Assembly (NCBI GenBank): GCA_041390205.1
Contig: JAWKQJ010000007.1
Span: 27,777 to 91,776, forward strand
DNA length: 64,000 nt
Origin: Gemmatimonadales bacterium
Lineage (GTDB): Bacteria; Gemmatimonadota; Gemmatimonadetes; Gemmatimonadales; GWC2-71-9
Direction: 5' to 3'
Shown here: positions 6,685 through 52,263 of the stretch, piece by piece
Layout of the letters: the number at the start of each line of letters is the position of its first letter
How positions within the stretch are numbered: the stretch's first letter is position 1
Made by a program: the position numbers and the translations under genes
Notes under the pieces: model-generated
What the model was told of the DNA's origin: nothing
What the model saw: only the letters and a program-made list of their open reading frames with translations
Database searches by the model: none

Positions 6685-6737
6685 CGACGCCGCGCGAAGA
6701 TAGACCCGCCGGCGCGGCGGGGGAATCCCCGATCTCG

Positions 6738-8110: not shown

Positions 8111-8197
8111 GAGAATCTACCGTGCCCCGAGGCGGCACGGCTCTTGCCCGTTCGGGGCGCCGACCAGAGCCCACGCAACCCGCTGCCGAGTGACGCC

Positions 8198-10044: not shown

Positions 10045-10047
10045 GCG

Positions 10048-10947: not shown

Positions 10948-11168
10948 GCCGTACCTGTCCTCGCCTCGGTCGTTCGCGCCACAGACAACGGACCGGGGGC
11001 CGCTCAGGTTCCAGGGAGCGGGCGGACCGGATCCGAAACAGACGATAGGATACCGGCGTCCTAACGTTGGTGCCAGCGCCCTGGCCGATCCGGTCAGCGC
11101 AGCGGCGGTCCGGTGCGTATTCTTAGGGTTGCCTCAGAAACCGTTCATCCTGGTCCCCGACGGTCCCC

Positions 11169-15538: not shown

Positions 15539-15547
15539 AGACTAGGA

Positions 15548-16639: not shown

Positions 16640-16688
16640 CCGCCGCTCCGCGCGCCCGACCCGGAGCCTCGGCCGCGCCACGATCGGG

Positions 16689-17903
16689 GTGATCGTGCGG
16701 CGCCCGGCGGTCTGCGGCGTGCTGGTTGCGATCGCGGCCTGCGCGGCACCTCGCGGGACCACACCGGAGCGAGACCCGCTGGTGGTGCTGATCGGCGTGG
16801 ACGGCTTCCGCGCCGACTACCTCGAGCGACCGGCGGCGGCCACCTTCCGCTCCCTGGCCGAGCGAGGCGTCCGCGCGGAAAAGCTGGTGCCGGTCTTTCC
16901 CACCAAGACCTTTCCCAACTTCTACACCATCGCCACCGGCCTCTACCCGACCCATCACGGCATCGTCGCCAACACGATGCGGGACTCGGTGCTCGGGAGC
17001 TTCACCCTGTCCAATCGCGCCGCCGTCGAGGACGGCCGATGGTGGGGCGGCGAGCCCATCTGGGTCACGGCCATCCGGGCCGGTCACCCCGCCACCGCGA
17101 TGTTCTGGCCCGGCTCCGAGGCCGACGTGGGCGGGGTCCGGCCGACCGAGTGGCGTCGCTTCACGGCGGACAAGAGCTACGACGAGCGGGTCGAGGAGGT
17201 GCTCGGATGGCTGGGTCGCGCCCCTCCCGAGCGACCGATCGTCACCACGCTCTACTTCGACGGTGTCGACGCGGCCGGCCATCGCTACGGGCCCGGCTCG
17301 GTCGAAGTCGACTCCGCCATCGCGCGGGTCGACCGGGCTCTCGCCTCGTTTCTCCGCGGACTCGCCGATCGTGGGCTCGATTCGATCGCCAACCTCGTCG
17401 TGGTCTCGGACCACGGCATGGCGGAGCTCGCCCCCGATCGCGTGATCTGGATCGACGACTACCTCGACTCCACCCAAGCCGAGATCGTGGACCTCGCGCC
17501 GGTCACTACGATCGCCCCGAAGCCCGGAGCCGAGTCGGCGGTCCTCGAGGCGCTCGCCGGGCGGCACCCGCACCTCGCCGTCCATCGTGCCGATCGGCTC
17601 CCCGCGCGGCTTCACGCCGACCCGCATCCGCGAGTGCCCGCCATCGTCGCGATCGCCGACCCGGGCTGGTCGGTGCGGCGCCGCGCGGCGGGCCCGCTGA
17701 CCGACAGAGGCAATCACGGATTCGACCCCGAGGATTCGTCGATGGCGGGGATCCTGATCGCCGCGGGGCCGGCGTTCCGATCGGGCGCCGTCGTCCCTCC
17801 GCTGAGCAACGTCCACCTCTACGCGCTGCTCGCGGGTCTCCTCGGACTCGAGCCCGCGCCGAACGACGGCTCGCCCGACTCCGTGCGAGCGCTCCTCCGG
17901 TGA
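16689..17903 (+). CDS. Ectonucleotide pyrophosphatase/phosphodiesterase (alkaline-phosphatase superfamily)
   Basis: [41 protein letters not shown]. Confidence 0.85.
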
Positions 17904-17950
17904 CCCCGGCCCCATTTGCGGCACCTGGCTCCGACGCTTTATTCCGAGCT

Positions 17951-18595
17951 ATGCCGCACCCCGACCACCCCAACCTGACGGTCCTCGACCACCCCCTGAT
18001 CCAGCACAAGTTGGCGATCCTGCGGAGTCGGACGACCGAGACCAAGAACTTCCGCCAGCTGGTCGGCGAGATCGCGATGCTGATGACCTACGAGGTCACC
18101 CGGGACCTCGAAACCGAGCCGGTCGAGATCGAGACGCCGCTCGAGGTCACCATGGGCCGGCGGGTGGCGGGCAAGAAGCTGGCTCTGGTGCCGATCCTGC
18201 GGGCGGGCCTCGGCATGGTGGACGGGATCTTGCAGCTGATCCCCTCGGCCCGGGTCGGCCACATCGGCCTCTACCGGGATCACGAAACGCTGGAGCCGGT
18301 CAGCTACTACTTCAAGGTGCCCTCGGCCGAGGCCGATCGCGACGTCTTCGTCCTCGACCCGATGCTGGCGACGGGAGGCTCGGCCGCGGACGCGGTGTCG
18401 AAGCTCAAGTCGGTCGGCGCCACCCGGATCCGGGTGCTCTGCCTGGTGGCCGCCCCCGAAGGCGTCGAGGCGATGCGGAGCCGCCACCCCGACGTGCCGG
18501 TCTACACCGCGGCCCTCGACCGGCAGCTCAACGAGCAGGGCTACATCCTCCCCGGGCTGGGCGACGCCGGCGACCGGATCTTCGGCACCCGATGA
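17951..18595 (+). CDS. upp: Uracil phosphoribosyltransferase
   Basis: In-frame ATG at 17951. [23 protein letters not shown] loop [24 protein letters not shown]. Confidence 0.9.
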
Positions 18596-18641
18596 GCCGG
18601 CGATCCGGAGCGCCAAAAAGCGTTAGGCAGGAGGTCGGACG

Positions 18642-20033
18642 ATGAGCGCCAAACTCACCTTCTGGGGTGCCGCCGGCGAGGTCACCGGGTCGATGCACCT
18701 CCTCGAGGCCGCCGGGGCCCGGATCCTCCTCGACGCCGGGCTCTTCCAGGGCCGCCGCCGGGAGGCCGCCGCCAAGAACGCCGAGCTCCCGTTCGACGCC
18801 CGCCGGATCGACATGGTCCTGCTGAGCCACGCGCACATCGATCACTCGGGACGGCTGCCGCTGCTGGTCCGCCACGGCTTCCACGGACCGATCTACGCGA
18901 CCCCGGCCACCCGGGACCTCTGCGCGGTGATGCTGCCCGACTCGGCCCACATCCAGATGAAGGACGCCGAGTTCCTCGCCCGGCACCGGCGGCCGAAAGG
19001 GCCCGAGAGCGAGCCGCTCTACACCATGGCCGACGCCTTCGCGGTGCAGGAGCTGATGGTCGGCCAGCCCTATCGCCGGGTCACCCACCTGCGAAAGCAC
19101 CTCGCCTTCGAGTTCACCGAGGCTGGCCACATCCTCGGCTCCGCCTCCGTGGACCTCCGGCTCACCGAGGGCGGAGGGCGCCGCATCGTCTTCTCGGGAG
19201 ACATCGGACGGAGCGGGCTCCCGATCATCCGGGACCCGGACCCGCCCACCGGACCGATCGACTGCCTGATCGTCGAATCGACCTACGGCAATCGCGAGCA
19301 CGAGACCACCGGCGACGCGGAGCGGCGCCTCGGCGAGATCGTCCGCACCGTGGCCGCGCGGGGCGGCAAGGTGCTGGTGCCCTCGTTCGCCCTGGGGCGG
19401 ACCCAGGAGCTGGTCTACGCGCTCCATCACCTCTTCCGCCAGGGCGAGATCCCCGAGATCCCGATCTTCGTGGACAGTCCCCTCGCCGTCGAGACCACCA
19501 GCGTCTTCCGGATGCACCCGGAGATCTTCGACCGCCGCGAGAAGCTGGTGGAGCGCACCGACCACATCCTCGACTTCCGGCTGGTCCGCTACGTCAGCGA
19601 CGTCAAGGATTCCAAGCGTCTCAACACCATGCACGGGCCCGCGATCATCATCTCGGCCTCGGGCATGGCCGAATCGGGCCGCATTCTCCACCACCTGAGC
19701 AACCACATCGGCGACCACAAGAACCTGATCCTCTTCGTCGGCTTCCAGGCCGAGCACACCCTGGGTCGGCGACTGCTCGAGGGTCAGCGCGAGGTGAAGA
19801 TCTTCGGCGAGAAGGTGGTGCGCCGCGCCGAGGTCGAGGTGATCGGGGGCTACTCGGCCCACGCCGACAAGCACGAGCTGCGCGCCTGGGTCAAGCGTCT
19901 CGGCGGCCCGGTGAGCCGCGCCTTCGTGGTCCACGGCGAGCCCGAGGCGGCGGCCGGGATGGCGACGATCCTGCGCGAGGAAGGTGTGGGTGAGGTGGTG
20001 ATTCCCGAGCTCGGCCAGTCGTTCGACCTGTGA
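18642..20033 (+). CDS. MBL-fold metallo-hydrolase with beta-CASP/RMMBL domains (RNA-processing nuclease-like)
   Basis: HxHxDH motif SHAHIDHSG, ESTYGNREH, YSAHAD. Confidence 0.85.
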   Translation: MSAKLTFWGAAGEVTGSMHLLEAAGARILLDAGLFQGRRREAAAKNAELPFDARRIDMVLLSHAHIDHSGRLPLLVRHGFHGPIYATPATRDLCAVMLPDSAHIQMKDAEFLARHRRPKGPESEPLYTMADAFAVQELMVGQPYRRVTHLRKHLAFEFTEAGHILGSASVDLRLTEGGGRRIVFSGDIGRSGLPIIRDPDPPTGPIDCLIVESTYGNREHETTGDAERRLGEIVRTVAARGGKVLVPSFALGRTQELVYALHHLFRQGEIPEIPIFVDSPLAVETTSVFRMHPEIFDRREKLVERTDHILDFRLVRYVSDVKDSKRLNTMHGPAIIISASGMAESGRILHHLSNHIGDHKNLILFVGFQAEHTLGRRLLEGQREVKIFGEKVVRRAEVEVIGGYSAHADKHELRAWVKRLGGPVSRAFVVHGEPEAAAGMATILREEGVGEVVIPELGQSFDL

Positions 20034-24468: not shown

Positions 24469-27048
24469 ATGGCTGTTTCCGCCTCGGACGAGACGCCCCT
24501 GCTCAGGCAGTACCGGGAGATCAAGTCGCAGCATCGCGACAAGATCCTGTTTTTCCGGATGGGCGACTTCTACGAGATGTTCTACGACGACGCGGAGCTC
24601 GCCGCCCGGGTCCTCGACATCACGCTCACCGCGCGGGGCGACGGGGTGCCCCTCGCCGGCGTGCCCGTCAAGGCCGCCGCCGAGTACCTCCGCCAGCTGG
24701 TGGCGAGCGGCCACCGGGTGGCGATCTGCGAGCAGGTCGAGGACCCCCGCAAGGCCAAGGGCATCGTCAAGCGCGCCGTGATCGAGACGGTGACGCCCGG
24801 CGCCTTGCTCGAAGACGGCTGGGTCCCCGGGGGCCGGAACAACTATCTGGTGGCCGTCGGGCCGCCGCCTCGCGGGGCCGGCCAGGTCGGGATCGCCGCG
24901 GTCGACCTCACCACCGGCGAGTTTCTGCTCGAGCAGGCCGAGCCCGGCCGGGTCAGCGAGGCCCTCGATCGACTCCAGCCCGCCGAGGTCATCGCTCCGG
25001 AATCCGCGGCGATCCCCGATCGCGACACGCTCCGCACCACCCGGGAGGCCTGGGAGTTCGACCCCGAGCTCGCCAGCGAGGAGCTCACCCGCCGATTCGC
25101 GATCGCCTCGCTCGACGGCCTCGGCCTCGCCCGGGACGACGGGCCGGCCGTCGGCGCGGCGGGCGCGCTGCTCCGCTATCTGAGCGAGCTGCAGCCGGCG
25201 GGCCTGCCTCACCTGCTGCGCCCCAGCCTCCGCCGACCCGAGGAGCACCTCTGGCTCGACGAGATGACCCGCCGGAACCTCGAGCTGGTGGAGCCGCTCA
25301 GGAGCGGCGCCAGAGGGGTCACTCTGCTGGAGATGCTCGACGAGTGCCTGACCCCGATGGGATCGCGGCTGCTCCGCCAATGGCTGCTTTCGCCCCTCAG
25401 GGACCCCGGAGCGATCGACGCCAGACTCGACGCGGTGGCCCGACTGGTCGACCAGTCCGGCCTGCGCGGCACCGCCCGGGACTCCCTCGACGGCGTGCGG
25501 GACGTCGAGCGCCTCGCCGGCCGGGCCGCGGCGGGGCGCGCCAATCCGAGGGAGATGGCCGCCCTTCGCGACTCGTTCCGCCGACTGCCCGACGTCCGCG
25601 ACACCGCGCGCGCCCTCGCCGAGAGCGGCTCGACGCTCCTGGCCGACGTCGCCGAGCTCGACCCGCTCGAGGACCTCCTCGACGCGCTCGATCGCGCCCT
25701 GGCGGACCGACCGCCGGTCAATCTCGCCGAGGGGAACGTGATTCGCCCCGGCTTCGACGCGGCGCTCGACGAGGACCGCCAACTCCGCGACGGCGGCAAG
25801 CAACATCTCGCCGCGGTCCAGGAGCGGGAGCGCGCCCGAACCGGGATCGGGTCGCTCAAGATCGGCTACAACAAGGTCTTCGGGTACTACCTCGAGGTCA
25901 CCCACGCGCACCGCAGTCGGATTCCCGACGACTACGAGCGCCGCCAGACCCTCACGTCCGCCGAGCGCTACATCACACCGGAGCTCAAGGAGTACGAGGC
26001 CAAGGTGCTCGGCGCCGAAGAGCGGATGGCCGCCCGAGAAGCCGAGCTCTTCGGCGAGCTGCGGCGCCAGGTCGGCGACGCCATCGGCCGGATCCAGGCC
26101 ACCGCTGCCCGCCTGGCCCGGCTGGACGTCTGGTGCGCGCTGGCCGAGGTCGCGATCGTCAACCAGTACGCCCGACCCGCGATCCACGACGGATTCGAGC
26201 TCGCCCTCACCGCCAGCCGCCACCCGGTGATCGAGCGGATGATGCCCCGGGAGTCGTTCATCCCGAACGACGTGCTCTTCACCGAAGCGAGTCGGGTCGC
26301 CCTCGTCACCGGCCCGAACATGGCCGGCAAGTCCACCATTCTCCGCCAGATCGGCCTGCTGGTGATCATGGCCCAGATGGGGAGCTTCGTCCCGGCCCGA
26401 GCCGCGTCCGTCGGCGTGGCGGATCGGCTCTTCACCCGGGTCGGTGCCAGCGACAATCTCGCCCGCGGGCAGTCCACCTTCATGGTGGAGATGAGCGAGA
26501 CCAGCGCGATCCTCCACAACGCCACCGCCAGGAGCCTCGTGCTGCTCGACGAGATCGGCCGCGGGACCTCGACCTACGACGGCGTCGCCATCGCCTGGGC
26601 GGTGACCGAGCACCTCCACGACCTGGTCGGCTGCAAGACCATGTTCGCCACCCACTATCACGAGCTGATGCAGCTGCCGGAACGTTTGGCGCACGCCCGC
26701 AACATGAACGTCGCCGTGCGGGAGACCGGCGAGACGATCGTCTTTCTCCACCGGCTCGAGCCCGGCGGCACCGATCGCTCCTACGGGATTCACGTCGCCG
26801 ACCTCGCCGGACTGCCCGGTCCGGTGATCGAGCGCGCCAAAGAGGTGCTCGGCACCCTGGAGGGTGAGCATCGGATGGTCCCCGGCGAGCCCCCGCGCGC
26901 CGACTCGCGCCAGCTCGCCCTGTTCGCCGAGCCGCGCGGGCCCGATCCGGTCCGCGAGGAGCTCGAGCGACTCGATCTCGACGCGCTGACCCCGATTCAA
27001 GCTCTGAACCGGCTGGCCGAGCTCCAGCAGAAGGCCCGGAGCAAGTGA
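24469..27048 (+). CDS. mutS: DNA mismatch repair protein MutS
   Basis: TPLLRQYREIKSQH..FFRMGDFYEMF, Walker A GPNMAGKST, DEIGRGTSTYDG. 859 aa, uninterrupted. Confidence 0.95.
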   Translation: MAVSASDETPLLRQYREIKSQHRDKILFFRMGDFYEMFYDDAELAARVLDITLTARGDGVPLAGVPVKAAAEYLRQLVASGHRVAICEQVEDPRKAKGIVKRAVIETVTPGALLEDGWVPGGRNNYLVAVGPPPRGAGQVGIAAVDLTTGEFLLEQAEPGRVSEALDRLQPAEVIAPESAAIPDRDTLRTTREAWEFDPELASEELTRRFAIASLDGLGLARDDGPAVGAAGALLRYLSELQPAGLPHLLRPSLRRPEEHLWLDEMTRRNLELVEPLRSGARGVTLLEMLDECLTPMGSRLLRQWLLSPLRDPGAIDARLDAVARLVDQSGLRGTARDSLDGVRDVERLAGRAAAGRANPREMAALRDSFRRLPDVRDTARALAESGSTLLADVAELDPLEDLLDALDRALADRPPVNLAEGNVIRPGFDAALDEDRQLRDGGKQHLAAVQERERARTGIGSLKIGYNKVFGYYLEVTHAHRSRIPDDYERRQTLTSAERYITPELKEYEAKVLGAEERMAAREAELFGELRRQVGDAIGRIQATAARLARLDVWCALAEVAIVNQYARPAIHDGFELALTASRHPVIERMMPRESFIPNDVLFTEASRVALVTGPNMAGKSTILRQIGLLVIMAQMGSFVPARAASVGVADRLFTRVGASDNLARGQSTFMVEMSETSAILHNATARSLVLLDEIGRGTSTYDGVAIAWAVTEHLHDLVGCKTMFATHYHELMQLPERLAHARNMNVAVRETGETIVFLHRLEPGGTDRSYGIHVADLAGLPGPVIERAKEVLGTLEGEHRMVPGEPPRADSRQLALFAEPRGPDPVREELERLDLDALTPIQALNRLAELQQKARSK

Positions 27049-35887: not shown

Positions 35888-35916
35888 TTGACTTTTCCAC
35901 ACAGGGGTCGTAGGTT
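35888..35916 (+). promoter_or_regulatory. Candidate dnaA promoter TTGACT-N17-TAGGTT with an embedded DnaA box TTTTCCACA (35893-35901)
   Basis: ttgact 35888-35893, taggtt 35911-35916. The box matches TTATCCACA at 8/9 positions and overlaps the -35/spacer. Confidence 0.45.
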
Positions 35917-35952: not shown

Positions 35953-37344
35953 GTGATGCAGCTCTCTCCGAAAGAGGCGTGGAAGCGCATTCTCGATGAG
36001 GCCCGTCGAGAGCTTCCGGAACAAGCCGTGACCACGTGGCTTGCCCCAGCCGAGCCCCGGGGAATCGAGGACGGCAGCTTCATTCTCGAGCTGCCGGACG
36101 AGTTCGCCGTCAAGTGGAACCAGGCCAAGCACGCCGGTCTGCTCACCCGACTCGCCCAACAGGTCGTCGGTCAGAACACCGAAGTGGCCTTCCGGGTGTC
36201 GGGAGAGCGGCTCCAGCGGCCGCAGATCGACTTCTTCGTCGAGCAGCCCGCCGAGGAGCCCCAGCCGGCCGCCCCGAAGGTGACCCCTTCGCCCCAGCCC
36301 CTGAACGAGCGCTACACCTTCGACTCGTTCGTGATCGGCAAGTCCAACGAGCTCGCCGCCGCCGCCGCGCATGCCGTGGCCGAAGCACCCGGGAAGACCT
36401 ACAACCCGCTCTTCATCTACGGCGGAACCGGACTCGGGAAGACCCACCTGATGCAGGCGATCGCCCACGCGGTCCAGCTCAAGGCCCCGGCCACCCGGGT
36501 GGTCTACGTCGGCGCCGAGCATTTCATCAACGAGGTGATCGAAGGGATCCATGGGCGGACCATGCCGCAGCTCCGGCGGCGGTATCGGACCGAAGTGGAC
36601 CTCTTCCTGGTCGACGACATCCACTTCCTGGAGGGCAAGGAGGCCACCCAGGAGGAGTTCTTCCATACCTTCAACACCCTCTACGAGGCCCAGAAGCAGA
36701 TCGTCCTGACCTCCGACAGGCCACCCAAGGAGCTGCCCGGCCTCGAGAGCCGCCTGGTGAGCCGTTTCGGCTGGGGCATGGTGGCCGACATCGGCCAGCC
36801 CGATCTCGAGCACCGGATCGCCATTCTCCGGAAGAAGCAGGAGCAGGACCACCTCGAGACCACCATTCCCGACGACGTCCTGGCCTTCATGGCCGAGCAC
36901 GTCTACTCGAACGTCCGGGAGCTCGAGGGCTGCATCATCAAGCTGCTGCTCTATGCCTCGCTCCGGCACCGTGAGATCACCATCGAGCTCGCCCGCGAGG
37001 CGCTGGCCGATCGGATCCGGCCCGGACCGGCCGCGACGCCCGGCAAGCCCAAGGCGCTCCCCACCATCGACCGCGTCCAGGACGTGGTCGCCCGGCAGTG
37101 GGGCGTGACCCCCGAAGGGCTCCGCTCGAAAGCCCGCATCAAGAGCCTGACCGTGCCCCGCCAGATCGCGATGTACCTGGCCCGGGAGGTCCTCAACATG
37201 CAGCTCGTGGAGATCGGCCAGGCCTTCGGCGGACGCGATCATTCGACCGTGATCCACAGCGTCGACAAGGTGCAGCGGCAGCTGGCCCGCGACCGCTCCT
37301 TCCGTGAGCGCGTCGAATCCGCGCGGGCCCAACTGGGCACCTGA
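35953..37344 (+). CDS. dnaA: Chromosomal replication initiator protein DnaA
   Basis: Walker A GGTGLGKTHL, box VII/sensor motifs, C-terminal DNA-binding domain (...FGGRDHSTVIHSVDKV). GTG at 35953 or ATG at 35956. Confidence 0.95.
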   Translation: MMQLSPKEAWKRILDEARRELPEQAVTTWLAPAEPRGIEDGSFILELPDEFAVKWNQAKHAGLLTRLAQQVVGQNTEVAFRVSGERLQRPQIDFFVEQPAEEPQPAAPKVTPSPQPLNERYTFDSFVIGKSNELAAAAAHAVAEAPGKTYNPLFIYGGTGLGKTHLMQAIAHAVQLKAPATRVVYVGAEHFINEVIEGIHGRTMPQLRRRYRTEVDLFLVDDIHFLEGKEATQEEFFHTFNTLYEAQKQIVLTSDRPPKELPGLESRLVSRFGWGMVADIGQPDLEHRIAILRKKQEQDHLETTIPDDVLAFMAEHVYSNVRELEGCIIKLLLYASLRHREITIELAREALADRIRPGPAATPGKPKALPTIDRVQDVVARQWGVTPEGLRSKARIKSLTVPRQIAMYLAREVLNMQLVEIGQAFGGRDHSTVIHSVDKVQRQLARDRSFRERVESARAQLGT

Positions 37345-37486
37345 TGGAGCCGAGGCCGCTAACCCCTGAGTCGACGGCCACTCCGGCGGTCGGCGCATGG
37401 GCGGCCTCCCCGTCCCGCCGAGCCGCCGCCCCCGACCGGCGCTTCCCGACCCAATCAGGGGCGATGGCAGCCCTGGAGCTGACGGC

Positions 37487-38596
37487 ATGAAGTTCACGAT
37501 CACCCGCGAGAAGCTGCACGAGGGGCTCGGCGCGGTCACCGGCATCGTCCCCACCAAGACGACGTTGCCGGTGCTCTCCAACATCCTGGTCGAGAGCACC
37601 GGCGGCGGGATCCGACTCTCCGGCACCGACCTCGACATCGCGGTCTCGACCGTCGTCCCGGCCCAGGTGGATCAGGAGGGCGCCACTACCCTGCCCGCCC
37701 GGAAGCTCGCCGAGATCGTCCGGGAGCTGCCCAGCGCGGCCATTCGATTCGCCAGCTCAGGCGAGCAGCGGGTCCAGATCGAGTGTGGCCGCTCCCGCTT
37801 CAAGCTGCTCGGCTTGTCCCGTGACGAGTTCCCGTCTCTTCCGGCGGTCCGATTCGAGGACGGTTGGTCGCTCGCGGCCAAGGACCTCCAGAAGCTGATC
37901 GGCCACGTGGCCTTCGCCGCGAGCACCGAGGAGAGCCGGCCGATCCTGAACGGCATCCTCTGGGAGCTGCGCCAGGATCGGATGCGGATGGTCGCGACCA
38001 ATGGCCACCGGTTGGCGCGGATGGACATCCCGGTGAAAGGCGCCGGGGGTGAGGCCGTCCTGATCGTGCCCCCCAAAGCCCTCGAGCAGATCCGCCGGCT
38101 CTTCCGGCCCGAGGACCAGATCGAGATCGCCAGGAGCGACAACCACTTGGGCTTCCGCTCCGCCGAGACCCAGGTCTATACCCGGCTGATCGAGGGACCG
38201 TACCCCAACTACGAGCCGGGCATTCCGCGCGACAACGACAAGATCGTCACCGTCGATCGCGCCGCCTTCGCCGGCGCGATCCGTCGCATGAGCATCGTGG
38301 CCAGCGACCAGACCCACCGGGTCCGGCTGGCCTTCACCAACGGCGCCTGCAAGCTCTCGGTCACCACCCCCGACCTCGGCGACGCCCAGGAAGAAATCGC
38401 CGTCTCCTACGACGGCGACCCGCTCGAGATCGGCTTCAACGCGTCGTACCTCCTCGAGATCCTCAAGTTCATGCCGACCGACGAGGTGCGCCTCGCGTTC
38501 AAGGCGCCCGAGCGGGCCGCCACGATGGAGCCGGTCGGCTGGGACGACCCCGCGAGCTATCTGACCCTGGTGATGCCGTTGCGCTTGCTCGCCTGA
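37487..38596 (+). CDS. dnaN: DNA polymerase III beta sliding clamp, copy 1 (divergent pocket motif YPNYEPGIP)
   Basis: ATG at 37487. 369 aa: MKFTITREKL..., ATNGHRLA, LVMPLRLLA. Confidence 0.9.
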   Translation: MKFTITREKLHEGLGAVTGIVPTKTTLPVLSNILVESTGGGIRLSGTDLDIAVSTVVPAQVDQEGATTLPARKLAEIVRELPSAAIRFASSGEQRVQIECGRSRFKLLGLSRDEFPSLPAVRFEDGWSLAAKDLQKLIGHVAFAASTEESRPILNGILWELRQDRMRMVATNGHRLARMDIPVKGAGGEAVLIVPPKALEQIRRLFRPEDQIEIARSDNHLGFRSAETQVYTRLIEGPYPNYEPGIPRDNDKIVTVDRAAFAGAIRRMSIVASDQTHRVRLAFTNGACKLSVTTPDLGDAQEEIAVSYDGDPLEIGFNASYLLEILKFMPTDEVRLAFKAPERAATMEPVGWDDPASYLTLVMPLRLLA

Positions 38597-38696
38597 TGGC
38601 GTCGCGACCAGCCCGGACCGCCACGCTGGTCATCCGGTGGGCAGCGGAATCGACATCCCCCATTTGCCCGAGCGCTCCGTGAGCGGCGTCAGGCCT

Positions 38697-38931
38697 CGTG
38701 GATAGCTCGACGGTCGATGACGACAACCGCGTTGGGAACTTGTGGAAGAGCGGGAGGCCCGGGCCCGGCGGGCTCGGTTTCCCAGACTGCCAACACCGCC
38801 CGGCGCGTCGGCGGGTGAGATAAGCGCTCTGCCCTCCAGCGCTTGGCGGACCCGTCCACAATCCCACGACTCTACGATTACTACGGTTTCTAAATTAAGA
38901 TTTGCAGTCATAGAAAAGAGCATGGGCAAAA
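38697..38931. promoter_or_regulatory. Candidate oriC core/DUE or dnaN-2 promoter: three DnaA-box-like 9-mers plus an AT-rich tract
   Basis: CGTGGATAG 38697-38705, TGTGGAAGA 38741-38749 and CCGTCCACA 38852-38860 match the box consensus at 6-7 of 9 positions and keep the TCCAC core. 38871-38930 is 21/60 G+C (35%) by my count. Confidence 0.4.
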
Positions 38932-38947
38932 CCCCGGAGCGGACCGC

Positions 38948-40057
38948 ATGAAGTTCACGATCACCCGTGAGAAGCTGCACGAAGGACTCGGTGCAGTTAC
39001 CGCAAGCGTCCCCACCAAGACGACGCTGCCGGTGCTCTCCAACATCCTGGTCGAGAGCACCGGTGACGGGATCCGACTCTCCGGCACCGATCTCGACATC
39101 GCCGTCTCGATGGTGGTTCCCGCGCAGGTCGATCAGGAAGGCGCGACCACCTTACCGGCCCGGAAGCTCGCCGAGATCGTCCGGGAGCTGCCCAGCTCGG
39201 CCATTCGGTTTGCCAGCTCCGGTGAGCAGCGGGTTCAAATCGAGTGTGGTCGCTCGCGCTTCAAGTTGCTCGGCTTGTCGCGTGACGAGTTCCCCGCGTT
39301 TCCGGCGGTCCAGTTCGACGGTGGCTGGACCGTCGCCGCGAAGGACCTGCAGAAGCTGATCGGCCACGTGGCTTTCGCGGCGAGCACCGAGGAGAGCCGG
39401 CCGATCCTGAACGGCGTGCTGTGGGAGCTCCGTCCGGATCGGATGCGGATGGTCGCGACCAACGGTCACCGGCTGGCGCGCATGGACGTTCCGGTGAAGG
39501 GCGCTGGGGGCCAGGCCGACCTGATCGTGCCCCCCAAGGCGCTCGAGCAGATCCGCCGGCTCTTCCGGCCCGAGGACGAGATCGAGATCGCCAGGAGCGA
39601 CAACCACCTGGGGTTCCGAGCCGCGGGCACCCAGGTGTTCACCAGGCTGATCGAGGGGCCCTACCCCAACTACGAGCAGGTGATCCCGCGGGAGAACGAC
39701 AAGATCGTCACGGTCGACCGGGGCGCGTTCACCGCGGCGATCCGCCGGATGAGCATCGTCGCCAGCGACCAGACCCACCGGATCCGGCTCGCCTTCACCA
39801 GCGGTTCCTGCAAGCTCTCCGTCACGACCCCCGACCTCGGCGATGCCCAGGAGGAGATGACGGTCTCCTACGACGGCGATCCCCTCGAGATCGGCTTCAA
39901 CGCTTCCTATCTGCTCGAAGTGCTGAAGTTCATGCCGACGGACGAAGTGCGGATGACCTTCAAGGCGCCGGAGCGCGCCACGACCTGCGAGCCGGTCGGC
40001 TGGGACGACCCGGCGAGCTATCTGTCGCTGGTGATGCCGCTTCGTCTGCTGGACTGA
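38948..40057 (+). CDS. dnaN: DNA polymerase III beta sliding clamp, copy 2 (canonical YPNYEQVIP)
   Basis: 369 aa, colinear with copy 1 with no indels and 39 substitutions by manual alignment. Confidence 0.9.
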   Translation: MKFTITREKLHEGLGAVTASVPTKTTLPVLSNILVESTGDGIRLSGTDLDIAVSMVVPAQVDQEGATTLPARKLAEIVRELPSSAIRFASSGEQRVQIECGRSRFKLLGLSRDEFPAFPAVQFDGGWTVAAKDLQKLIGHVAFAASTEESRPILNGVLWELRPDRMRMVATNGHRLARMDVPVKGAGGQADLIVPPKALEQIRRLFRPEDEIEIARSDNHLGFRAAGTQVFTRLIEGPYPNYEQVIPRENDKIVTVDRGAFTAAIRRMSIVASDQTHRIRLAFTSGSCKLSVTTPDLGDAQEEMTVSYDGDPLEIGFNASYLLEVLKFMPTDEVRMTFKAPERATTCEPVGWDDPASYLSLVMPLRLLD

Positions 40058-40063: not shown

Positions 40064-40100
40064 GGCTCGGCTCGATTACTCGGTGAGGCCGAGCCGAGCC
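40064..40100. terminator. 11-bp inverted repeat between convergent dnaN-2 and mtgA
   Basis: ggctcggctcg 40064-40074 pairs with cgagccgagcc 40090-40100. 15-nt loop, no clear U-tract. It overlaps the mtgA 3' end. Confidence 0.3.
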
Positions 40101-40990
40101 GCCGCGATCGATCCTTCCTGCGACATTCGCTTCAGAATCAGCTGCTGCCGCCATCGGATTCGCCCCGAGCGGTAGCCCGGGTTGGCCGTGAGCGGTGCCG
40201 GCAGCGTCGCCGCCAGAGCCGCCGACTGGTCTCGCGAGAGCCGCTCGGCGGGGCGGCGATAGTAGGTCTGGCTCGCCGCCTCGACACCCCAGACCTCGGG
40301 ACCCAGCTCGACCACGTTGACGTAGAGCTCGAGGATCCGCCGCTTGCCCAGCGCCCACTCGAGACGGTACGCGGTGACCGCCTCCTTGAGCTTTCGGAAC
40401 GGGTTCCTGGACGGTGAGAGATAGAGGTTCTTGGCGAGCTGCTGGGTGATCGTGCTCGCCCCCCGGATCTCCCGCCGATTGCTCCACGCGTCCTGCAGCG
40501 CGCGCCAGAGCTCGGCCCGGTCGCGCTCGTCTCCGATGGCGAAGTCCGCCCGGCGATATCCCAGCGCCTCGCGCACCGCCTGGTAGTCGATCCCGCCATG
40601 CTCGAAGAACCGGTGGTCCTCCGCGACGAGGACCGCCGCGAAGACGTCCGGGTCGATCCGCTCGGCACGAACCGGCTGATACCGGCGCTCGAGCGGGGCC
40701 CCGTCCTGACTTTCCCGGCGCCGCTGGGGGTGGCTCGCGAGCTGGCTGGCCTGGCGATCCCGCAACGCCATGAACGCGGTTTCGCCGGGCCAGGCCCACC
40801 GGTACCAGATCGGTGGGGGCCAGACGGCAAAGAGCCATAGCAGGCCGAGGCCGAATCCAACCAGCGTGAGACGGCGGAACCACCAGAATACCGACCGACT
40901 CTTGGTGGTAGCCTGTGCTGCTACCTCACCGGGCGACTGCGGAGGCGCTTGGCCCGACGGCCGCTCCTGCGGGTCGGGCCTGTCGGTCAC
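40076..40990 (-). CDS. mtgA: Monofunctional peptidoglycan glycosyltransferase (GT51)
   Basis: VAEDHRFFEHGGID, GASTITQQLAKNLYLS, RKLKEAVTAYRLE, ILELYVNVVELG. Confidence 0.85.
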   Translation of the reverse strand: MTDRPDPQERPSGQAPPQSPGEVAAQATTKSRSVFWWFRRLTLVGFGLGLLWLFAVWPPPIWYRWAWPGETAFMALRDRQASQLASHPQRRRESQDGAPLERRYQPVRAERIDPDVFAAVLVAEDHRFFEHGGIDYQAVREALGYRRADFAIGDERDRAELWRALQDAWSNRREIRGASTITQQLAKNLYLSPSRNPFRKLKEAVTAYRLEWALGKRRILELYVNVVELGPEVWGVEAASQTYYRRPAERLSRDQSAALAATLPAPLTANPGYRSGRIRWRQQLILKRMSQEGSIAAARLGLTE

Positions 40991-41772
40991 TCAACCACCG
41001 AGATCTTTGTCTCACGCGTGATCTTGACCGGAATCGGCGCTGGCAGGGCCGGGGCGCTGATCGTCGCGTCGGCCTTGCCGGACGTGCTCCCGCCCAGATA
41101 GCGGCCGCCGGACGAGACGAAGAAGGTCCGGGTCGCGGTCTCCTCGGTGGAGATGTCCATCGCGCCGAGTCCGGGGTTCTGGATGGTTCCAGTGCCCTTG
41201 CTCGTCACGGTGGCGTCGATCCGCTGGGCGCTCCCGCCGCCGAACTGCTCCTTGCCACCGGCGGTGTAGGCGGTGACGACCACCGAACTCATCTCCTGGG
41301 AGGAGGTCTTGCTCTGCACCGCGGTGGTGTCGACCCACTGCGCGCCGCTCTGGAGAGCGGCCCGGATTCGCGGGTGGAAGGTGAGGATGCTGGTCTTGAG
41401 CTGCCCTACCAGGTCCGATTGCTCGTCGGAGACTCCGCTCACGGTGGCTTGCCCGTCCTTGGACAGGAATCCGTGGAGCCAGGCGCCCTTGGCGCTGTCG
41501 AGCACGGCCCGGGGCGGAGTGCCCACGCCGGAGGCGTCGACCGAGTCGATCACCACGTGCATCGCCTTGCCGCCGGCCGAGTCGGTCAGCGTAACCGTGA
41601 ACAGCACCGTCTGATTGACCGTGTTGCGCTGCTCGGCCTGACCCACGACCGAGAGATCGACGACCTGCTCGATCGACGCATCCATCCGGTACTTCGTGAC
41701 CATTGGCGCCGAGCTGACGGCAGCGGAGACGGCGGCACCCAAGCCCAGAACCAGCAACCCGCGAATCAACAT
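40987..41772 (-). CDS. Hypothetical secreted protein
   Basis: Signal-peptide-like start MLIRGLLVLGLGAAVSAAVS. Ser/Thr/Gly-rich beta-type composition. 4-nt overlap with mtgA. No family recognised. Confidence 0.55.
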   Translation of the reverse strand: MLIRGLLVLGLGAAVSAAVSSAPMVTKYRMDASIEQVVDLSVVGQAEQRNTVNQTVLFTVTLTDSAGGKAMHVVIDSVDASGVGTPPRAVLDSAKGAWLHGFLSKDGQATVSGVSDEQSDLVGQLKTSILTFHPRIRAALQSGAQWVDTTAVQSKTSSQEMSSVVVTAYTAGGKEQFGGGSAQRIDATVTSKGTGTIQNPGLGAMDISTEETATRTFFVSSGGRYLGGSTSGKADATISAPALPAPIPVKITRETKISVVE

Positions 41773-49482: not shown

Positions 49483-52263
49483 TTGACCGCGCGCGAGCGG
49501 CCTCGCCTCTTCCTGATCGACGGCCACGCGCTGATCTACCGCGCGTTCTTCGCGCTCATCAGCCGTCCCCTGCGCACCTCCCGCGGCGAGAACACCTCGG
49601 CCGCCTGGGGCGTCGTCAACTTCCTGCTCCGGCTGCGCGAGCGCTATCACCCCGACTACGTCGCCTGGGTGCTCGATGCCGGCGACTCGCACCGCCGGGC
49701 GATCTATCCCGAGTACAAGTCGACCCGGGAGAAGCTCGACGCCGAGTTGCAGCAGGACTTCGACCTGGCGCTCGAGCAGGTGCGCGCTCTGCTCGAGGCC
49801 TTTCGGATCCCGGTGGTGACCGTGCCCGGGTTCGAAGCGGACGACGTGATCGGCACCCTCGCGGCCCGTGAGGCCGCCGCCGATCTGCAGGTGGTGATCG
49901 TCTCCGGCGACAAGGACTTCTATCAGCTGATCCGGCCCGGCGTGGCGCTCCTCAATCCGGGTCGGGGCGGCCCGGCCGGGGTCGACGAGCAGTGGGTCGA
50001 CGAGTCGAACGCCGCGGAGCGTCTCGGCGTGCCGCCGCGCCAGGTGATCGATTTCCTCTCGCTGGTCGGCGACAGCTCGGACAACGTGCCGGGCGTGCGC
50101 GGCGTGGGCGAGAAGACCGCGACGAAGCTGCTGGAGGCCTACGACGACCTCGACGCCATCCTCGCCCACGCCGCGGAGGTGAGCGGCAAGCGGGCTCGGG
50201 AGGCGCTCCTCGCGGAGGCCGACAACGCCCGGCTCTCCAAGACGCTGGTCACCATCCGGACCGACGTGCCGGTGGACTTCGAGCTCGATGCGGCCAAGGT
50301 GCGCGAGCCGGACGGGCCGGCGCTCCTGTCCGCGTTGACCAAGTTCGAGTTCCACTCCCTGGTTTCCCGATTGCAGAGCGAGTTCGAGGGCGCGGTGCCC
50401 ACGACCGGCGATGCCTCGCCGGTGGCCGAGCCGGTCGGGGAGACGACGGTGGTGGACGACCCGGCGGATCTGACGCCGATGCTCGAGGCCCTGCGATCGG
50501 CCGGGTCGGTGGCGATCAAGGCGGTCGCCGTGGGGGCGGCGCCTCGCGACGCCGAGCTGGTGGGGCTCGCCTTCGCGACCGACGAGGCCGCCTGGTATCT
50601 GCCGCTCGGGCATCGGCCGCGGGACGGCGAGCTGGCTGCGCCCGAGCCGATTCGGAATCTCGACCTCGCCGGAGCGGCTCTCGAGCCGCTCCGGGAGTAT
50701 CTCGGCGACCCGGGCGGGTCCAAGATCGGGCACGACCTCAAGCTCGACTGGGAGCTCCTGAGGGGCGCCGGCGTCGAGCTCGGGGGCGGCACCTTCGACA
50801 CGATGCTCGCGAGCTTCGTGCTGGACCCGGGTCGCCGATCCCACGACCTGGCCACGCTCTCGCTGGATCACCTCGGCCGGGGTTTGCCGGCGGATCCGTG
50901 CGCGACGGGCAAGGGACGGCCCGACCTGCCGATCGCCGTGGTCCCGGTCGACGAGGCGGCGGCCTATTTCGGAGCCGCGGTGCGCACGATGATCGCGCTG
51001 CACGACTTCCTGACTCCGCGGCTGGAGCAGACCGAGCTCGCCCCGCTGCTCGCGAACGTCGAGATCCCGCTGATCGCGGTGCTGGTGGACATGGAGTGGA
51101 GGGGCATCGCGATCGATCGAGCCGTGTTCGACCGGCTCTCTCGGGAGCTGACCACCGACCTGGTCCGACTCGAGGCCGAGATCGCCAAGGCCGCCGGCGG
51201 GTCGTTCAATCTGAACAGCCCGAAGCAGCTGGCCGGGGTGCTCTTCGAGAAGCTCCAGCTGCCGGTGGTGAAGAAGACCAAGACGGGCCCCTCGACCGAC
51301 GCCGACGTGCTCGAGCAGCTGGCCGCGATGGGACACGACGTGCCTCGACTGCTGCTCGAGTACCGCGAGCTGCAGAAGCTGCGGTCGACCTACGTCGACG
51401 TGCTCCCGGCCAGGACCAGCCCGCGCACCGGGCGAATCCACACGACCTTCAACCAGACCGGCGCGGCCACCGGCCGGCTGTCCTCCTCGGATCCGAATCT
51501 CCAGAACATCCCGATTCGAACGGCGCGCGGCGAGGAGATTCGGCGGGGCTTCGTCCCGACCGACGGCTTTCGCTTCGTCGTGGCCGACTACTCGCAGATC
51601 GAGCTGCGGCTGATGGCCCACTTCTCCGGCGATCCGGCGTTCGTCGAGGCCTTCCAGCGGGGTGGAGACATCCACCGTCAGACCGCGGCCGTGATCTTCG
51701 GCGTCGAGGTCGACGACGTGACGGCCGAGATGCGGGCGCGGGCCAAGACCATCAACTTCGCGACCATCTACGGACAGGGACCCTTCGCCTTGAGCCGCCA
51801 GCTCGGGATCCCGATGGACGAGGCGAAGGCGTTCATCTCCCAGTACTTCGAGCGGTTCGCCGGGGTGCGGGCCTATCTCGACGGTCAGATCGCGCTCGCC
51901 CGGCGCCAGGGCTACGTCGAGACCCTGTTCAAGCGGCGGCGGTACATCCCGGAGATCAAGGACAAGAACTTCAACACCCGGTCGTTCGGAGAGCGCCTGA
52001 GTCAGAACTCGCCGCTCCAGGGCTCGGCCGCCGATCTGATCAAGATCGCGATGGCGCGGATTCACGACGGGCTCCGCGAGCAGGGCGGCGGCGGACGACT
52101 CCTGCTGCAGGTCCACGACGAGCTGGTCCTCGAAGCGCCGGCCGACCAGGTGGACGCGGTCGCCGCGATCGTCCGGCGTCACATGGAGGGCGCCGCCCAG
52201 CTCCAGGTGCCGCTCGTGGTCGACATCGGGATCGGCGACAACTGGCTGGACGCGAAGCGCTGA
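49483..52263 (+). CDS. polA: DNA polymerase I
   Basis: TTG start. 5'-nuclease domain (LIDGHALIYRAFFA), 3'-5' exonuclease-like domain, and polymerase motifs DYSQIELR, KTINFATIYG, QVHDELV. Confidence 0.95.
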   Translation: MTARERPRLFLIDGHALIYRAFFALISRPLRTSRGENTSAAWGVVNFLLRLRERYHPDYVAWVLDAGDSHRRAIYPEYKSTREKLDAELQQDFDLALEQVRALLEAFRIPVVTVPGFEADDVIGTLAAREAAADLQVVIVSGDKDFYQLIRPGVALLNPGRGGPAGVDEQWVDESNAAERLGVPPRQVIDFLSLVGDSSDNVPGVRGVGEKTATKLLEAYDDLDAILAHAAEVSGKRAREALLAEADNARLSKTLVTIRTDVPVDFELDAAKVREPDGPALLSALTKFEFHSLVSRLQSEFEGAVPTTGDASPVAEPVGETTVVDDPADLTPMLEALRSAGSVAIKAVAVGAAPRDAELVGLAFATDEAAWYLPLGHRPRDGELAAPEPIRNLDLAGAALEPLREYLGDPGGSKIGHDLKLDWELLRGAGVELGGGTFDTMLASFVLDPGRRSHDLATLSLDHLGRGLPADPCATGKGRPDLPIAVVPVDEAAAYFGAAVRTMIALHDFLTPRLEQTELAPLLANVEIPLIAVLVDMEWRGIAIDRAVFDRLSRELTTDLVRLEAEIAKAAGGSFNLNSPKQLAGVLFEKLQLPVVKKTKTGPSTDADVLEQLAAMGHDVPRLLLEYRELQKLRSTYVDVLPARTSPRTGRIHTTFNQTGAATGRLSSSDPNLQNIPIRTARGEEIRRGFVPTDGFRFVVADYSQIELRLMAHFSGDPAFVEAFQRGGDIHRQTAAVIFGVEVDDVTAEMRARAKTINFATIYGQGPFALSRQLGIPMDEAKAFISQYFERFAGVRAYLDGQIALARRQGYVETLFKRRRYIPEIKDKNFNTRSFGERLSQNSPLQGSAADLIKIAMARIHDGLREQGGGGRLLLQVHDELVLEAPADQVDAVAAIVRRHMEGAAQLQVPLVVDIGIGDNWLDAKR

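Follow-up and report, generated by a model that had tools for sequence, protein, structure and literature searches.

A tandem pair of dnaN genes beside dnaA in Gemmatimonadales, with an altered protein-binding pocket in the upstream copy

The hydrophobic cleft of the bacterial beta sliding clamp receives the clamp-binding motifs of polymerases, the clamp loader delta subunit, MutL, Hda and others. It is regarded as one of the best-conserved sites of protein-protein docking in bacteria and is an antibiotic target, and one argument for targeting it is that mutational resistance should be hard to gain. Paralogous clamp subunits form a ring with non-equivalent partner-binding sites in the case of Sulfolobus PCNA1-2-3 and the 9-1-1 complex, and the Bacillus paralogue DnaN-2 is encoded away from dnaA. 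Val247 and Arg246 are listed as residues of subsite I in the cleft, which is evolutionarily preserved (PMC11139829), and the 9-1-1 complex is mentioned in PMC10937111. In the Bacillus anthracis/cereus group, DnaN-1 and the second chromosomal clamp DnaN-2, which share only about 40% similarity, can replace each other in part only, with a biological role that is unclear (PMC3290774). In actinomycete producers, the GriR and MypR genes are located inside NRPS clusters and beside transposases (PMC11621423; PMC10817943), while dnaN amplification in Mycobacterium smegmatis is a recent and unstable dosage effect of identical copies, which carries a fitness cost (PMC11621423).

Two dnaN genes in direct tandem were found in a window of 64 kb, the whole stretch of Gemmatimonadales DNA that was analysed, with the following arrangement.

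35953..37344, + strand: dnaA, chromosomal replication initiator, 463 aa (full-length TIGR00362 match, 511 bits)
37345..37486, + strand: GC-rich dnaA-dnaN1 spacer, with a ribosome-binding site GGAG at 37475-37478
37487..38596, + strand: dnaN1, the upstream, fast-evolving, pocket-variant beta sliding clamp (GenBank MEZ4585849.1; TIGR00663 match)
38948..40057, + strand: dnaN2, the downstream, conservative, ancestral-type beta sliding clamp (GenBank MEZ4585850.1; TIGR00663 match)
40076..40990, - strand: mtgA-like monofunctional peptidoglycan glycosyltransferase, convergent (TIGR02070/Transgly match)

Both dnaN genes comprise 369 codons plus the stop codon and are colinear without indels, with a repeat period of 1461 bp. 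Their proteins differ at 39 amino acids (89.4% identity) and the genes at 153 of 1110 nucleotides (86.2% identity), with 92 codons differing only synonymously and 39 non-synonymously, so the counts of the initial annotation are reproduced exactly. The gapless repeat begins 16 nt before each ATG, includes a shared GGAG at -12..-9 and extends to the stop codons, in agreement with the boundaries proposed earlier; further upstream, a weak and gapped likeness can be seen by eye to about -28. The TIGR00663 profile is covered at positions 1-367 of 367 with 313 bits for dnaN1 and 325 bits for dnaN2 (cutoff 137.65), PDB clamps are matched at E=2e-64, and the clamp domains PF00712, PF02767 and PF02768 are present in the DnaN of relatives. 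A preference of the second copy for A/T-ending codons, initially ascribed to the first ~400 nt, is clear in codons 1-74 (GC3 of 0.96 in dnaN1 vs 0.81 in dnaN2) and weak in codons 75-148 (0.88 vs 0.85); moreover, it is dnaN1 that is unusual, while dnaN2 resembles dnaA, mtgA and its orthologues in codon usage.

The convergent mtgA, which had been correctly placed after the pair, is the usual gene downstream of dnaN in this clade and is present in most relatives. In a scan of 79 single-copy relatives, dnaA-dnaN followed by convergent mtgA is the commonest arrangement, with mtgA downstream, within the DNA covered, in about 50 of them, and neither recF nor gyrB was seen downstream of dnaN in any. 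The absence of recF and gyrB, which had been presented as a departure from the usual gene order, is hence normal for the clade.

The layout dnaA-dnaN-dnaN-mtgA also exists in four other independent assemblies from related but distinct Gemmatimonadales, whose tandem-locus sequences differ by 3-17%; the dnaA of the window is 98% identical to that of L001.

L001: NCBI MAG
L081: JGI
L082: ENA, 419-kb contig
L083: JGI

All genomes compared are MAGs or metagenome contigs of uncultured organisms, and about 158 other relatives contain a single dnaN. The tandem pair is thus rare (one in 160 untargeted relatives) rather than a common, well-annotated trait of the clade, though the two proteins already bear the name DNA polymerase III subunit beta in GenBank. 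In metagenome_contigs, 0 matches were obtained with a degenerate DNA pattern for Y-E-[QP]-G-I-P-R-D-N-D-K, and a follow-up protein scan of the same collection returned 80 loci, all single-copy and all at most 80% identical, so this source adds negatives only. The joining of two strain variants of one gene could be suspected on account of the metagenome-assembled source, and a related short scaffold, L164, may itself be chimeric. However, the pair recurs in five independent assemblies from different projects, in one of them inside the 419-kb contig, a specific spacer is conserved between the copies, and the orthologous N1 and N2 clades branch congruently. Since the same layout is present in four other independent assemblies, an assembly artefact was rejected, and we regard its probability as negligible.

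In NJ trees of both protein and nucleotide sequences, the N1 and N2 clades are sisters with a bootstrap of 100 inside the single-copy Gemmatimonadales dnaN, a derived E->D change at residue 299 is common to both copies, and comparisons with single-copy relatives, with a single exception, place dnaN2 nearer to them than dnaN1 by 2-5 points. As the copies are the closest relatives of each other, the pair originated by duplication within the lineage and not by horizontal transfer, which sets aside the suggestion of different histories for the two copies. A xenologous dnaN inserted beside the resident gene would fit with the slightly different GC3 of the whole genes (0.93 in dnaN1 vs 0.89 in dnaN2) and with homology confined to the gene itself, but the copies are mutually nearest, both contain Asp299, and the GC3 of both is within or near the range of neighbouring genes; horizontal acquisition was therefore rejected as highly improbable. 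The phylogeny is mosaic, in that the L082 copies pair together over codons 1-325 (100%), while over codons 326-374 only 2% of support is left for this pairing and a group of all N1 copies appears at 57%, a value obtained from 49 codons only. The window, L081 and L082 have a derived Ser360 (TCG) in common in their N2 copies, and sites shared within a genome are in excess (25 vs 6). Between the window's own copies no long conversion tracts were observed, and within-genome sites are interleaved with orthology-supporting sites. Intermittent gene conversion may have homogenised most of the gene, leaving out the 3' end and the pocket differences, in which case the locus would exemplify tandem paralogues evolving under such a regime.

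Both genes are kept by purifying selection, with dN/dS well below 1: it is 0.06-0.09 for N1 orthologues, 0.015-0.046 for N2 orthologues and 0.05-0.12 when the paralogues are compared. Both reading frames are intact, as the initial annotation had read them. The duplication has outlasted speciation and a dS of about 0.4-0.76. The protein of dnaN1 evolves about 3-4 times faster than that of dnaN2 (dN between the window and L081 of 0.0405 for N1 and 0.0109 for N2). In Tajima relative-rate tests on the window, L081 and L082, N1 is the faster copy (p 0.0002-0.0035 for most outgroups and 0.03-0.09 for three), with the asymmetry absent in L083. This faster amino-acid rate, the loss of a conserved pocket residue and a heavily remodelled loop in the upstream copy of L082 might be taken as signs that dnaN1 is decaying towards a pseudogene under relaxed selection only. 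Such decay was rejected as very unlikely, because frames are intact in four full-length upstream copies and a 5'-truncated fifth, the dN/dS of N1 orthologues is far from 1, the ribosome-binding site is conserved and the TIGR00663 score is far over the cutoff.

Two positions of dnaN1 are relevant to its protein-binding surface.

38216..38221, + strand: dnaN1 codons 244-245, CCG GGC = Pro-Gly, equivalents of E. coli R246-V247 (subsite I)
38591..38593, + strand: last codon of dnaN1, GCC = Ala (Asp in 164 other clade sequences)

Since dnaN2 and all single-copy relatives contain Gln-Val at 244-245, the changes in dnaN1 correspond to Q244P and V245G, both of which are fixed in the three N1 orthologues, at positions where 18 outgroups show no variation. 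Among 138 diverse clamps the V247 equivalent is Val in 127, Ile in nine, Ala in two and Gly in none. The pocket loop is altered in all five upstream copies (EPGIPRD three times, EQGIPRD once and PLEVLDKLL once), while Val is kept in four of the five downstream copies, which are all those covering the loop, and in every readable single-copy loop among 158. Additional changes in dnaN1 are E249D, also found in about 16 single-copy relatives, and the C-terminal D369A, with the terminal Ala restricted to upstream copies (window, L081 and L083). The cleft of dnaN2 is clade-invariant at each of the 18 distinct positions mapped (20 list entries), of which 13 are identical to E. coli, whereas that of dnaN1 matches the clade at all but two, the R246 equivalent being Pro and the V247 equivalent Gly. 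At the dimer interface, mapped from the residue list of PMC11139829, all 13 positions are identical in dnaN1 and dnaN2, with a hydrophobic core of I, F, I and V corresponding to E. coli I78, F106, I272 and L273; the charged pairs are among the positions compared, and the DNA-facing residues checked are also the same. The two subsite-I residues, which the initial annotation overlooked, are the most telling differences between the paralogues.

With an almost universally conserved cleft residue changed, dnaN1 is probably a specialised second clamp, and the earlier suggestion of subfunctionalised clamps appears reasonable, the upstream copy being the faster-evolving one and the one that differs in the protein-binding pocket. 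DnaN1 would be a functional ring-forming clamp, in which an enlarged or more flexible subsite I may alter which partners or pocket inhibitors bind, or how tightly, an effect predicted for V245G from the position of the residue in E. coli structures; the housekeeping clamp role would then belong to dnaN2. We consider it reasonably likely that the locus represents a retained within-lineage tandem duplication, comprising a conservative clamp, dnaN2, and a diverging pocket-variant clamp, dnaN1.

The 1.6-kb scaffold L164 bears on how specialised dnaN1 can be, as it contains a Gly245/Asp249 dnaN in a single-copy-like setting, between dnaA with a full origin-like spacer and mtgA. Its dnaN is N1-like at the 5' end (96% vs 83%) and N2-like at the 3' end, and the scaffold may result from the collapse of a tandem or from chimeric assembly. 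The proposition that Gly245 is perfectly tied to the upstream tandem position was softened on its account: if L164 is real, a clamp of the Gly variant can suffice on its own, which weakens a strongly specialised role of dnaN1. That would accord with the two clamps being equivalent, with near-neutral changes in dnaN1, and kept for dosage near the origin or simply not yet collapsed. Also in line with this are the 89% identity, the sameness of the interface and of all but two pocket residues, the precedent of dnaN amplification as an adaptive route in M. smegmatis (PMC11621423) and the sufficiency of one intact cleft in E. coli, as given in PMC3022782. Such redundancy is nevertheless doubtful, given the long persistence of the pair with dN/dS well below 1 in both copies, the asymmetric divergence, and the recurrence, only in upstream copies apart from L164, of a substitution at a site where none of the 138 diverse clamps has Gly.

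The region between the two clamp genes, together with a site upstream of dnaA, contains the following elements.

35893..35901, + strand: DnaA-box-like 9-mer TTTTCCACA upstream of dnaA, with one mismatch to TTATCCACA
38597..38714, + strand: 5' part of the dnaN1-dnaN2 spacer, little conserved even among the three closest tandem loci
38715..38947, + strand: origin-like region, resembling an oriC unwinding module and homologous to the spacer between dnaA and dnaN in single-copy relatives
38741-38746 and 38855-38860, + strand: DnaA-box cores TGTGGA and TCCACA of the module, from a box scan
38870-38925, + strand: AT-rich stretch within the module, 36% GC
38872-38883, + strand: trio array CTA CGA TTA CTA (other strand 3'-GAT GCT AAT GAT-5'), separated from TCCACA by an 11-nt spacer
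38936-38939, + strand: GGAG upstream of dnaN2, at the end of the module

The description of this 335-nt spacer as unique holds within the 64-kb window, where it has no significant similarity elsewhere, nor does its 5' part resemble the 3' ends of dnaA or mtgA or any other part of the window. A blastn-short search of 38597-38760 and of the dnaA-dnaN1 spacer against the window gave only chance-level matches of 9-16 nt, hence the duplication breakpoints are not reconstructable. The description does not extend to relatives, since in an alignment with nine single-copy relatives the 3' ~235 nt of the spacer are colinear with their dnaA-dnaN spacers, with the TCCACA and CTCTAC columns invariant. This origin-like module, conserved in the clade, had been overlooked inside the supposedly unique spacer. 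It is situated in the dnaA region at a switch in GC skew, with values of -0.03 to -0.08 as far as ~40 kb, about 0 after that and the change near 40 kb, and the rpmH-side genes mnmE and yidC on the - strand are followed by dnaA on the + strand. Four of the 12 TCCACA/TGTGGA cores in the 64 kb lie between 35.9 and 38.9 kb. Published searches for the oriC basal unwinding system (BUS) require a DnaA box that departs from TTATCCACA at no more than two positions and has the trios within 16 bp, and at least three consecutive NAN trinucleotides, typically 3'-GAT-5' (PMC8287927). The module box CCGTCCACA has three mismatches to TTATCCACA, with its TCCACA core invariant in 12 aligned loci, and the array GAT GCT AAT GAT of the window contains at most two consecutive matching trinucleotides; five consecutive trios are present in the single-copy relatives L008, L010 and L041.

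No box/trio/AT-rich module is present in the dnaA-dnaN1 spacer (37345..37486), whose equivalent is only 58-61 nt long in L082 and L081, which suggests co-transcription of dnaN1 with dnaA. Thus, dnaN1 would probably be expressed together with dnaA and dnaN2 probably from the origin-proximal region; a consensus scan of 35.6-40.3 kb, with a consensus uninformative for this phylum, gave no sigma-70-like promoter or + strand terminator. As the module forms the upstream flank of dnaN2, the putative unwinding element sits between two clamp genes, and the putative origin tolerates a 1.5-kb insertion between dnaA and this element. In this genome dnaN2 keeps both ancestral flanks, the origin-like module upstream and mtgA downstream. 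An ancestral context for dnaN2 was dropped as a general rule, because the module appears upstream of the first copy in L083 and upstream of the variant copy in L164 as well. A unit of intergenic module plus dnaN may have been duplicated, with subsequent loss of one of the two module copies.

The identical interfaces make mixed DnaN1/DnaN2 rings with two non-equivalent clefts possible, and the heterodimeric rings raised earlier are to that extent compatible with the residues at the dimer contacts. Whether as such mixed rings or as separate homodimers with different client lists, this elaboration is unlikely. If true, the lineage could reserve one docking site for a partner or shield one site from an inhibitor, and the presence of Val->Gly in several tandem lineages would reflect either repeated selection or preservation by gene conversion. 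It is alternatively conceivable, although unlikely, that dnaN1 serves as an inhibitor-insensitive spare clamp, with a changed subsite I that evades an agent directed at the clamp. This agent could be a toxin, a phage protein or a peptide like griselimycin or mycoplanecin made by soil bacteria nearby, and the spare clamp would act in the manner of GriR/MypR but without a linked biosynthetic cluster. The changed residues do lie in the cleft that griselimycin occupies, V->G or loop remodelling is seen in three tandem lineages, the source belongs to a soil-type clade, and the second dnaN copies griR and mypR set a precedent for self-resistance (PMC11621423; PMC10817943). However, the sensitive dnaN2 is still present, and it would remain a target for poisoning if clamps carrying the inhibitor are dominant, and no NRPS/PKS or other biosynthetic genes were found among 23 ORFs scanned in 64 kb of the 161-kb contig (20 large ORFs with Pfam; dnaA, both dnaN and mtgA with NCBIfam), the Pfam finds being efflux pumps, MutS, PolA, kinases, RNase D, SufB and similar; the proposed link with a griselimycin-type gene cluster is accordingly not upheld. 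On the favoured reading of a retained duplication with a pocket-variant clamp, a natural, selected paralogue with subsite-I Val -> Gly in more than one tandem lineage offers a ready-made test of cleft tolerance, and DnaN1 would be informative on partner choice or inhibitor binding after a cleft change.

Compared with known systems, the single-copy relatives resemble Bacillus subtilis-type origins in having a box core, a spacer of about 11 bp, 3'-GAT-5' repeats and an AT-rich tract between dnaA and dnaN, whereas here dnaA and the module are kept apart by an additional clamp gene, and the window's own trio array and box are degenerate with respect to the published BUS criteria. The likeness to Sulfolobus PCNA1-2-3 and the 9-1-1 complex is limited to the possibility of mixing that identical interfaces provide. 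Griselimycin-resistant M. smegmatis likewise acquires extra copies of the dnaN region near oriC by duplication (PMC11621423), but the copies here are old (dS 0.4-0.76), diverged and selected. With GriR and MypR the locus shares an extra dnaN paralogue and the rationale of an altered interaction at the protein-binding cleft (PMC11621423; PMC10817943), although here the phylum is different, the copy is at the origin and the scanned ORFs include no biosynthetic genes. As in the Bacillus anthracis/cereus group with DnaN-2, a second intact dnaN exists in one genome; in contrast to DnaN-2, the copies here are adjacent, 89% identical, flank an origin-like module and differ at a defined pocket residue, and given this 89.4% identity, adjacency and lineage-specific origin the pair is not a Bacillus-type DnaN-2 paralogue. 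Since dnaN paralogues are already known, a natural pocket-variant tandem paralogue is a good lead rather than a first-order surprise.

The two clamp genes reside on a 160,945-bp contig of a Gemmatimonadales metagenome-assembled genome, with dnaA directly upstream and a convergent mtgA-type glycosyltransferase gene directly downstream:

37487-38596, + strand: dnaN1, the upstream copy, 369 codons, full-length match to TIGR00663, GenBank MEZ4585849.1
38948-40057, + strand: dnaN2, the downstream copy, 369 codons, full-length match to TIGR00663, GenBank MEZ4585850.1

Both proteins score far above the cutoff of TIGR00663 (DnaN equivalog). Direct comparison gave the same 39 amino acid differences without indels as counted in the initial annotation (89.4% amino acid identity), and at the nucleotide level 153 differences in 1110 positions, with 92 codons differing only synonymously and 39 non-synonymously. 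The repeat has a period of 1461 bp, and its limits were also correctly drawn, as gapless similarity extends from 16 nt upstream of each ATG to the stop codons, including a shared GGAG at -12 to -9. The start of dnaN1 at 37487 (MKFTITRE) is backed by alignment with all homologues; upstream of it, the frame is open across 37397-37486 to an ATG at 37397, giving an ORF of 399 amino acids. Adjoining mtgA, positions 40987-41772 on the - strand hold an ORF of 261 amino acids without Pfam or NCBIfam match, and genes for 260-262 amino acids lacking a Pfam match occupy the same place beside mtgA in the related tandem loci L081 and L082 and in two single-copy contigs; this ORF is thus a conserved unknown neighbour.

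The same dnaA-dnaN-dnaN-mtgA layout is found in four independently assembled and sequence-distinct loci of related Gemmatimonadales, and hence an assembly artefact is excluded for practical purposes:

L001: NCBI MAG, tandem, second copy cut by the contig end
L081: JGI metagenome contig of 8.5 kb, tandem
L082: ENA contig of 419 kb, tandem
L083: JGI contig of 3.2 kb, tandem, first copy cut by the contig end

Among 160 relatives sampled regardless of how many dnaN genes they carry (80 species-representative genomes and 80 metagenome contigs), two copies were present in only one, L001. The tandem is therefore rare rather than a common feature of the clade, though both proteins already carry the name 'DNA polymerase III subunit beta' in GenBank. 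The absence of recF and gyrB, presented initially as a peculiarity, turned out to be the norm for the clade, since dnaA-dnaN and then a convergent mtgA is the prevailing order in single-copy relatives wherever the sequence extends past dnaN; in the genome scan, about 50 of 79 single-copy loci show it, sometimes with mtgA at a distance of 1-5 kb. Two further cases were met in the survey. One MAG (SMAG_U2108, DASVGF01) has dnaA-dnaN on each of two separate contigs (L047 and L079), for which strain mixture or bin contamination is more likely than a second origin. A Gemmatimonadales-type dnaA-dnaN locus, 76-80% identical to that of the window (L043, JALOLB010000374.1), is filed under a Thermoanaerobaculaceae (Acidobacteriota) MAG, which is probably a binning error.

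The initial annotation had called for a phylogeny separating duplication from transfer, and neighbour-joining trees of protein and nucleotide alignments with bootstrap point to duplication within the lineage. The upstream copies of the window, L001 and L081 form one clade (bootstrap 99/95) and their downstream copies another (98/100); the two clades are sisters (bootstrap 100), nested within single-copy Gemmatimonadales dnaN. Acquisition of one copy as a horizontal xenologue is ruled out by this sister relationship together with a derived Asp at residue 299, common to both copies, in place of the Glu of 18 outgroups. In L082, and likewise in L083, the copies of one locus pair together along most of their length (bootstrap 100). 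For L082, this probably reflects gene conversion rather than a separate duplication, because the pairing, found in 100% of bootstrap replicates for codons 1-325, drops to 2% in codons 326-374, where the four upstream copies group together (57%), and because a derived Ser360 codon, TCG, is common to dnaN2 of the window and its downstream counterparts in L081 and L082 and absent from their upstream partners and outgroups. Between the window and L081, sites of within-genome agreement are in excess (25 versus 6 for the control pattern), and no long conversion tracts were evident in this comparison, such sites being interleaved with orthology-supporting ones. L083 belongs to a different sub-clade, with single-copy lineages standing between it and the window's group, and its junction differs from that of the window (a spacer of 132 nt with the AT-rich part and no DnaA-box core). 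The tandem may represent either an older duplication lost several times, such loss being easy for tandem repeats, or one that arose more than once.

The spacers indicate which copy occupies the ancestral position. In single-copy relatives, the dnaA-dnaN intergenic region measures about 230-330 nt, mostly about 235-255, and contains TGTGGA/TCCACA DnaA-box cores with an invariant TCCACA, followed some 11-13 nt further by CTCTAC and repeated CTA triplets (3'-GAT-5' on the opposite strand), about 45 nt of AT-rich DNA, a ribosome-binding site and dnaN. This plan matches the layout of the bacterial origin 'basal unwinding system', which consists of DnaA boxes, a spacer and DnaA-trios (PMC8287927). 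In the window, the corresponding elements are:

38715-38947, + strand: origin-like module, the 3' 235 nt of the dnaN1-dnaN2 spacer, colinear in alignment with the relatives' dnaA-dnaN regions
38741: TGTGGA
38855: TCCACA
from 38872: triplet array
38870-38925: stretch of 36% GC, versus 70% for the genome

The region is termed origin-like, and not a demonstrated origin, because its box has 3 mismatches and the trio array at most 2 consecutive NAN triplets, short of a strict reading of published search criteria. GC skew runs negative until about 40 kb and is close to zero past that. The dnaA-dnaN1 spacer, 142 nt long in the window and 58-61 nt in L082 and L081, is GC-rich and without the module. 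With the module in the dnaN1-dnaN2 spacer and none ahead of dnaN1, dnaN2 of the window retains both ancestral flanks, and dnaN1 separates dnaA from the putative unwinding element. For the lineage of L083, the arrangement seems reversed: a short related scaffold, L164, has dnaA and a complete module directly upstream of a dnaN that matches the L083 upstream copy at 96% identity in its 5' end. The inter-dnaN spacer of L083 (L083:1056-1187) keeps the AT-rich and triplet part with the TCCACA core missing, and looks like a decayed second module. One model could accommodate both lineages, if the duplicated unit comprised module plus dnaN and one module subsequently decayed, which would be the first in the window's lineage and the second in that of L083.

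Both genes are under strong purifying selection, as the dN/dS comparison recommended at the outset gave Nei-Gojobori estimates far below 1 (0.06-0.09 among upstream orthologues, 0.015-0.046 among downstream orthologues and 0.05-0.12 between paralogues). The window and L081 differ by a dN of 0.0405 in the upstream gene and 0.0109 in the downstream one, at similar dS (0.61 and 0.73, respectively). Tajima relative-rate tests identified the upstream copy as the faster one in the window, L081 and L082 (p 0.0002-0.0035 with most outgroups, 0.03-0.09 with three), and did not show this for L083. Consistently, dnaN2 is closer than dnaN1 to single-copy relatives by 2-5 points in all but one of 79 comparisons. 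The earlier observation of divergent codon usage holds for the first 74 codons (GC3 0.96 versus 0.81), but it is copy 1 and not copy 2 that is unusual, codon usage of dnaN2 being like that of dnaA, mtgA and orthologues in related genomes.

Residues were mapped on the E. coli beta sequence, verified as identical to PDB 1MMI, using the cleft and dimer-interface residues listed in a recent review (PMC11139829). All 13 dimer-interface positions, the DNA-facing positions checked and the whole of subsite II are identical in dnaN1 and dnaN2, as are 10 of 12 positions of subsite I, the exceptions being residues 244 and 245 (E. coli R246 and V247). These are Gln-Val in dnaN2 and all 18 outgroups and Pro-Gly in the three upstream orthologues. 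At the V247 position, a set of 138 diverse full-length clamps sharing 33-71% identity with the query has Val (127), Ile (9) or Ala (2), with Gly in none. The L083 upstream copy has Gln-Gly plus E249D, its Val to Gly and Glu to Asp replacements being the same as in dnaN1 of the window and each requiring a single-nucleotide change. Val is kept in all downstream copies covering the loop (4 of 5, that of L001 being cut before it) and in every single-copy locus with a readable loop (2 of 167 dnaN places lack a readable motif). In the L082 upstream copy (L082:6001-7113, ENA contig_40326), LEVLDKLL stands in place of the loop YEQVIP, adding two residues and losing the conserved Tyr and Pro; the DNA does not fit a simple frameshift as its source, and the change reads as another, distinct remodelling of this loop among the upstream copies. 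Just past the cleft-forming tail, the C-terminal Asp found in 164 other sequences is Ala in three upstream copies only (window, L081 and L083). With derived sites defined by one common residue in at least 15 of 18 outgroups, other changes fixed in upstream copies are V157I, V181I, Q189E, D191V/A, E249D and T337A.

On these sequences, the simplest reading casts dnaN2 as the housekeeping clamp; dnaN1 would be a paralogue that is functional and forms rings, and whose subsite I is enlarged or more flexible, which would shift affinity for partners or inhibitors. Because the interfaces are identical, mixed dnaN1/dnaN2 rings are possible, and they could work, since one intact cleft is reported to keep E. 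coli viable (PMC3022782). Retention of dnaN1 might be due to a dedicated partner, to insensitivity to a clamp-targeting compound or toxin, or to dosage. Self-resistance of the GriR/MypR type within a biosynthetic cluster found no support, the 23 ORFs scanned in the window encoding efflux, MutS, Pol I, kinases, RNase D, SufB and similar housekeeping functions. Efflux systems cluster at 1-20000 (HlyD-MacB-OEP at 1068-5338, AcrB-type at 11169-14270, HlyD at 15548-16639), with no apparent link to the clamp pair. Within 15 kb of the pair lie genes for MutS, with all five MutS domains (24469-27048, + strand), and for DNA polymerase I (49483-52263, + strand), both of which serve the clamp as clients in model bacteria. 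A caveat on the extent of any functional change comes from the L164 scaffold (L164:1-1615, ENA ERZ1758400 HuN_forest_Scaff7737776, 1.6 kb), whose apparently single-copy dnaN, with Gly245 and Asp249, has mtgA on its other side and is a mosaic with a 3' end more like the downstream copy. It may be an assembly chimera or a tandem collapsed by recombination. Should it be real, a cell can have a Gly245 clamp as its sole clamp, and a modest change of function would be likelier than a drastic one.

Structurally, the lead is concrete and open to testing; the role given to dnaN1 is putative and the organisms are uncultured. Searches of the open-access literature gave no account of dnaN in tandem at an origin, of clamp paralogues from Gemmatimonadota or of a V247G-type clamp occurring naturally. 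Second dnaN genes as such are known, and the window adds to three settings: Bacillus, whose DnaN-2 is about 40% similar to DnaN-1 (PMC3290774), griR and mypR inside NRPS clusters (PMC11621423; PMC10817943), and dnaN amplification under griselimycin, which is unstable (PMC11621423).
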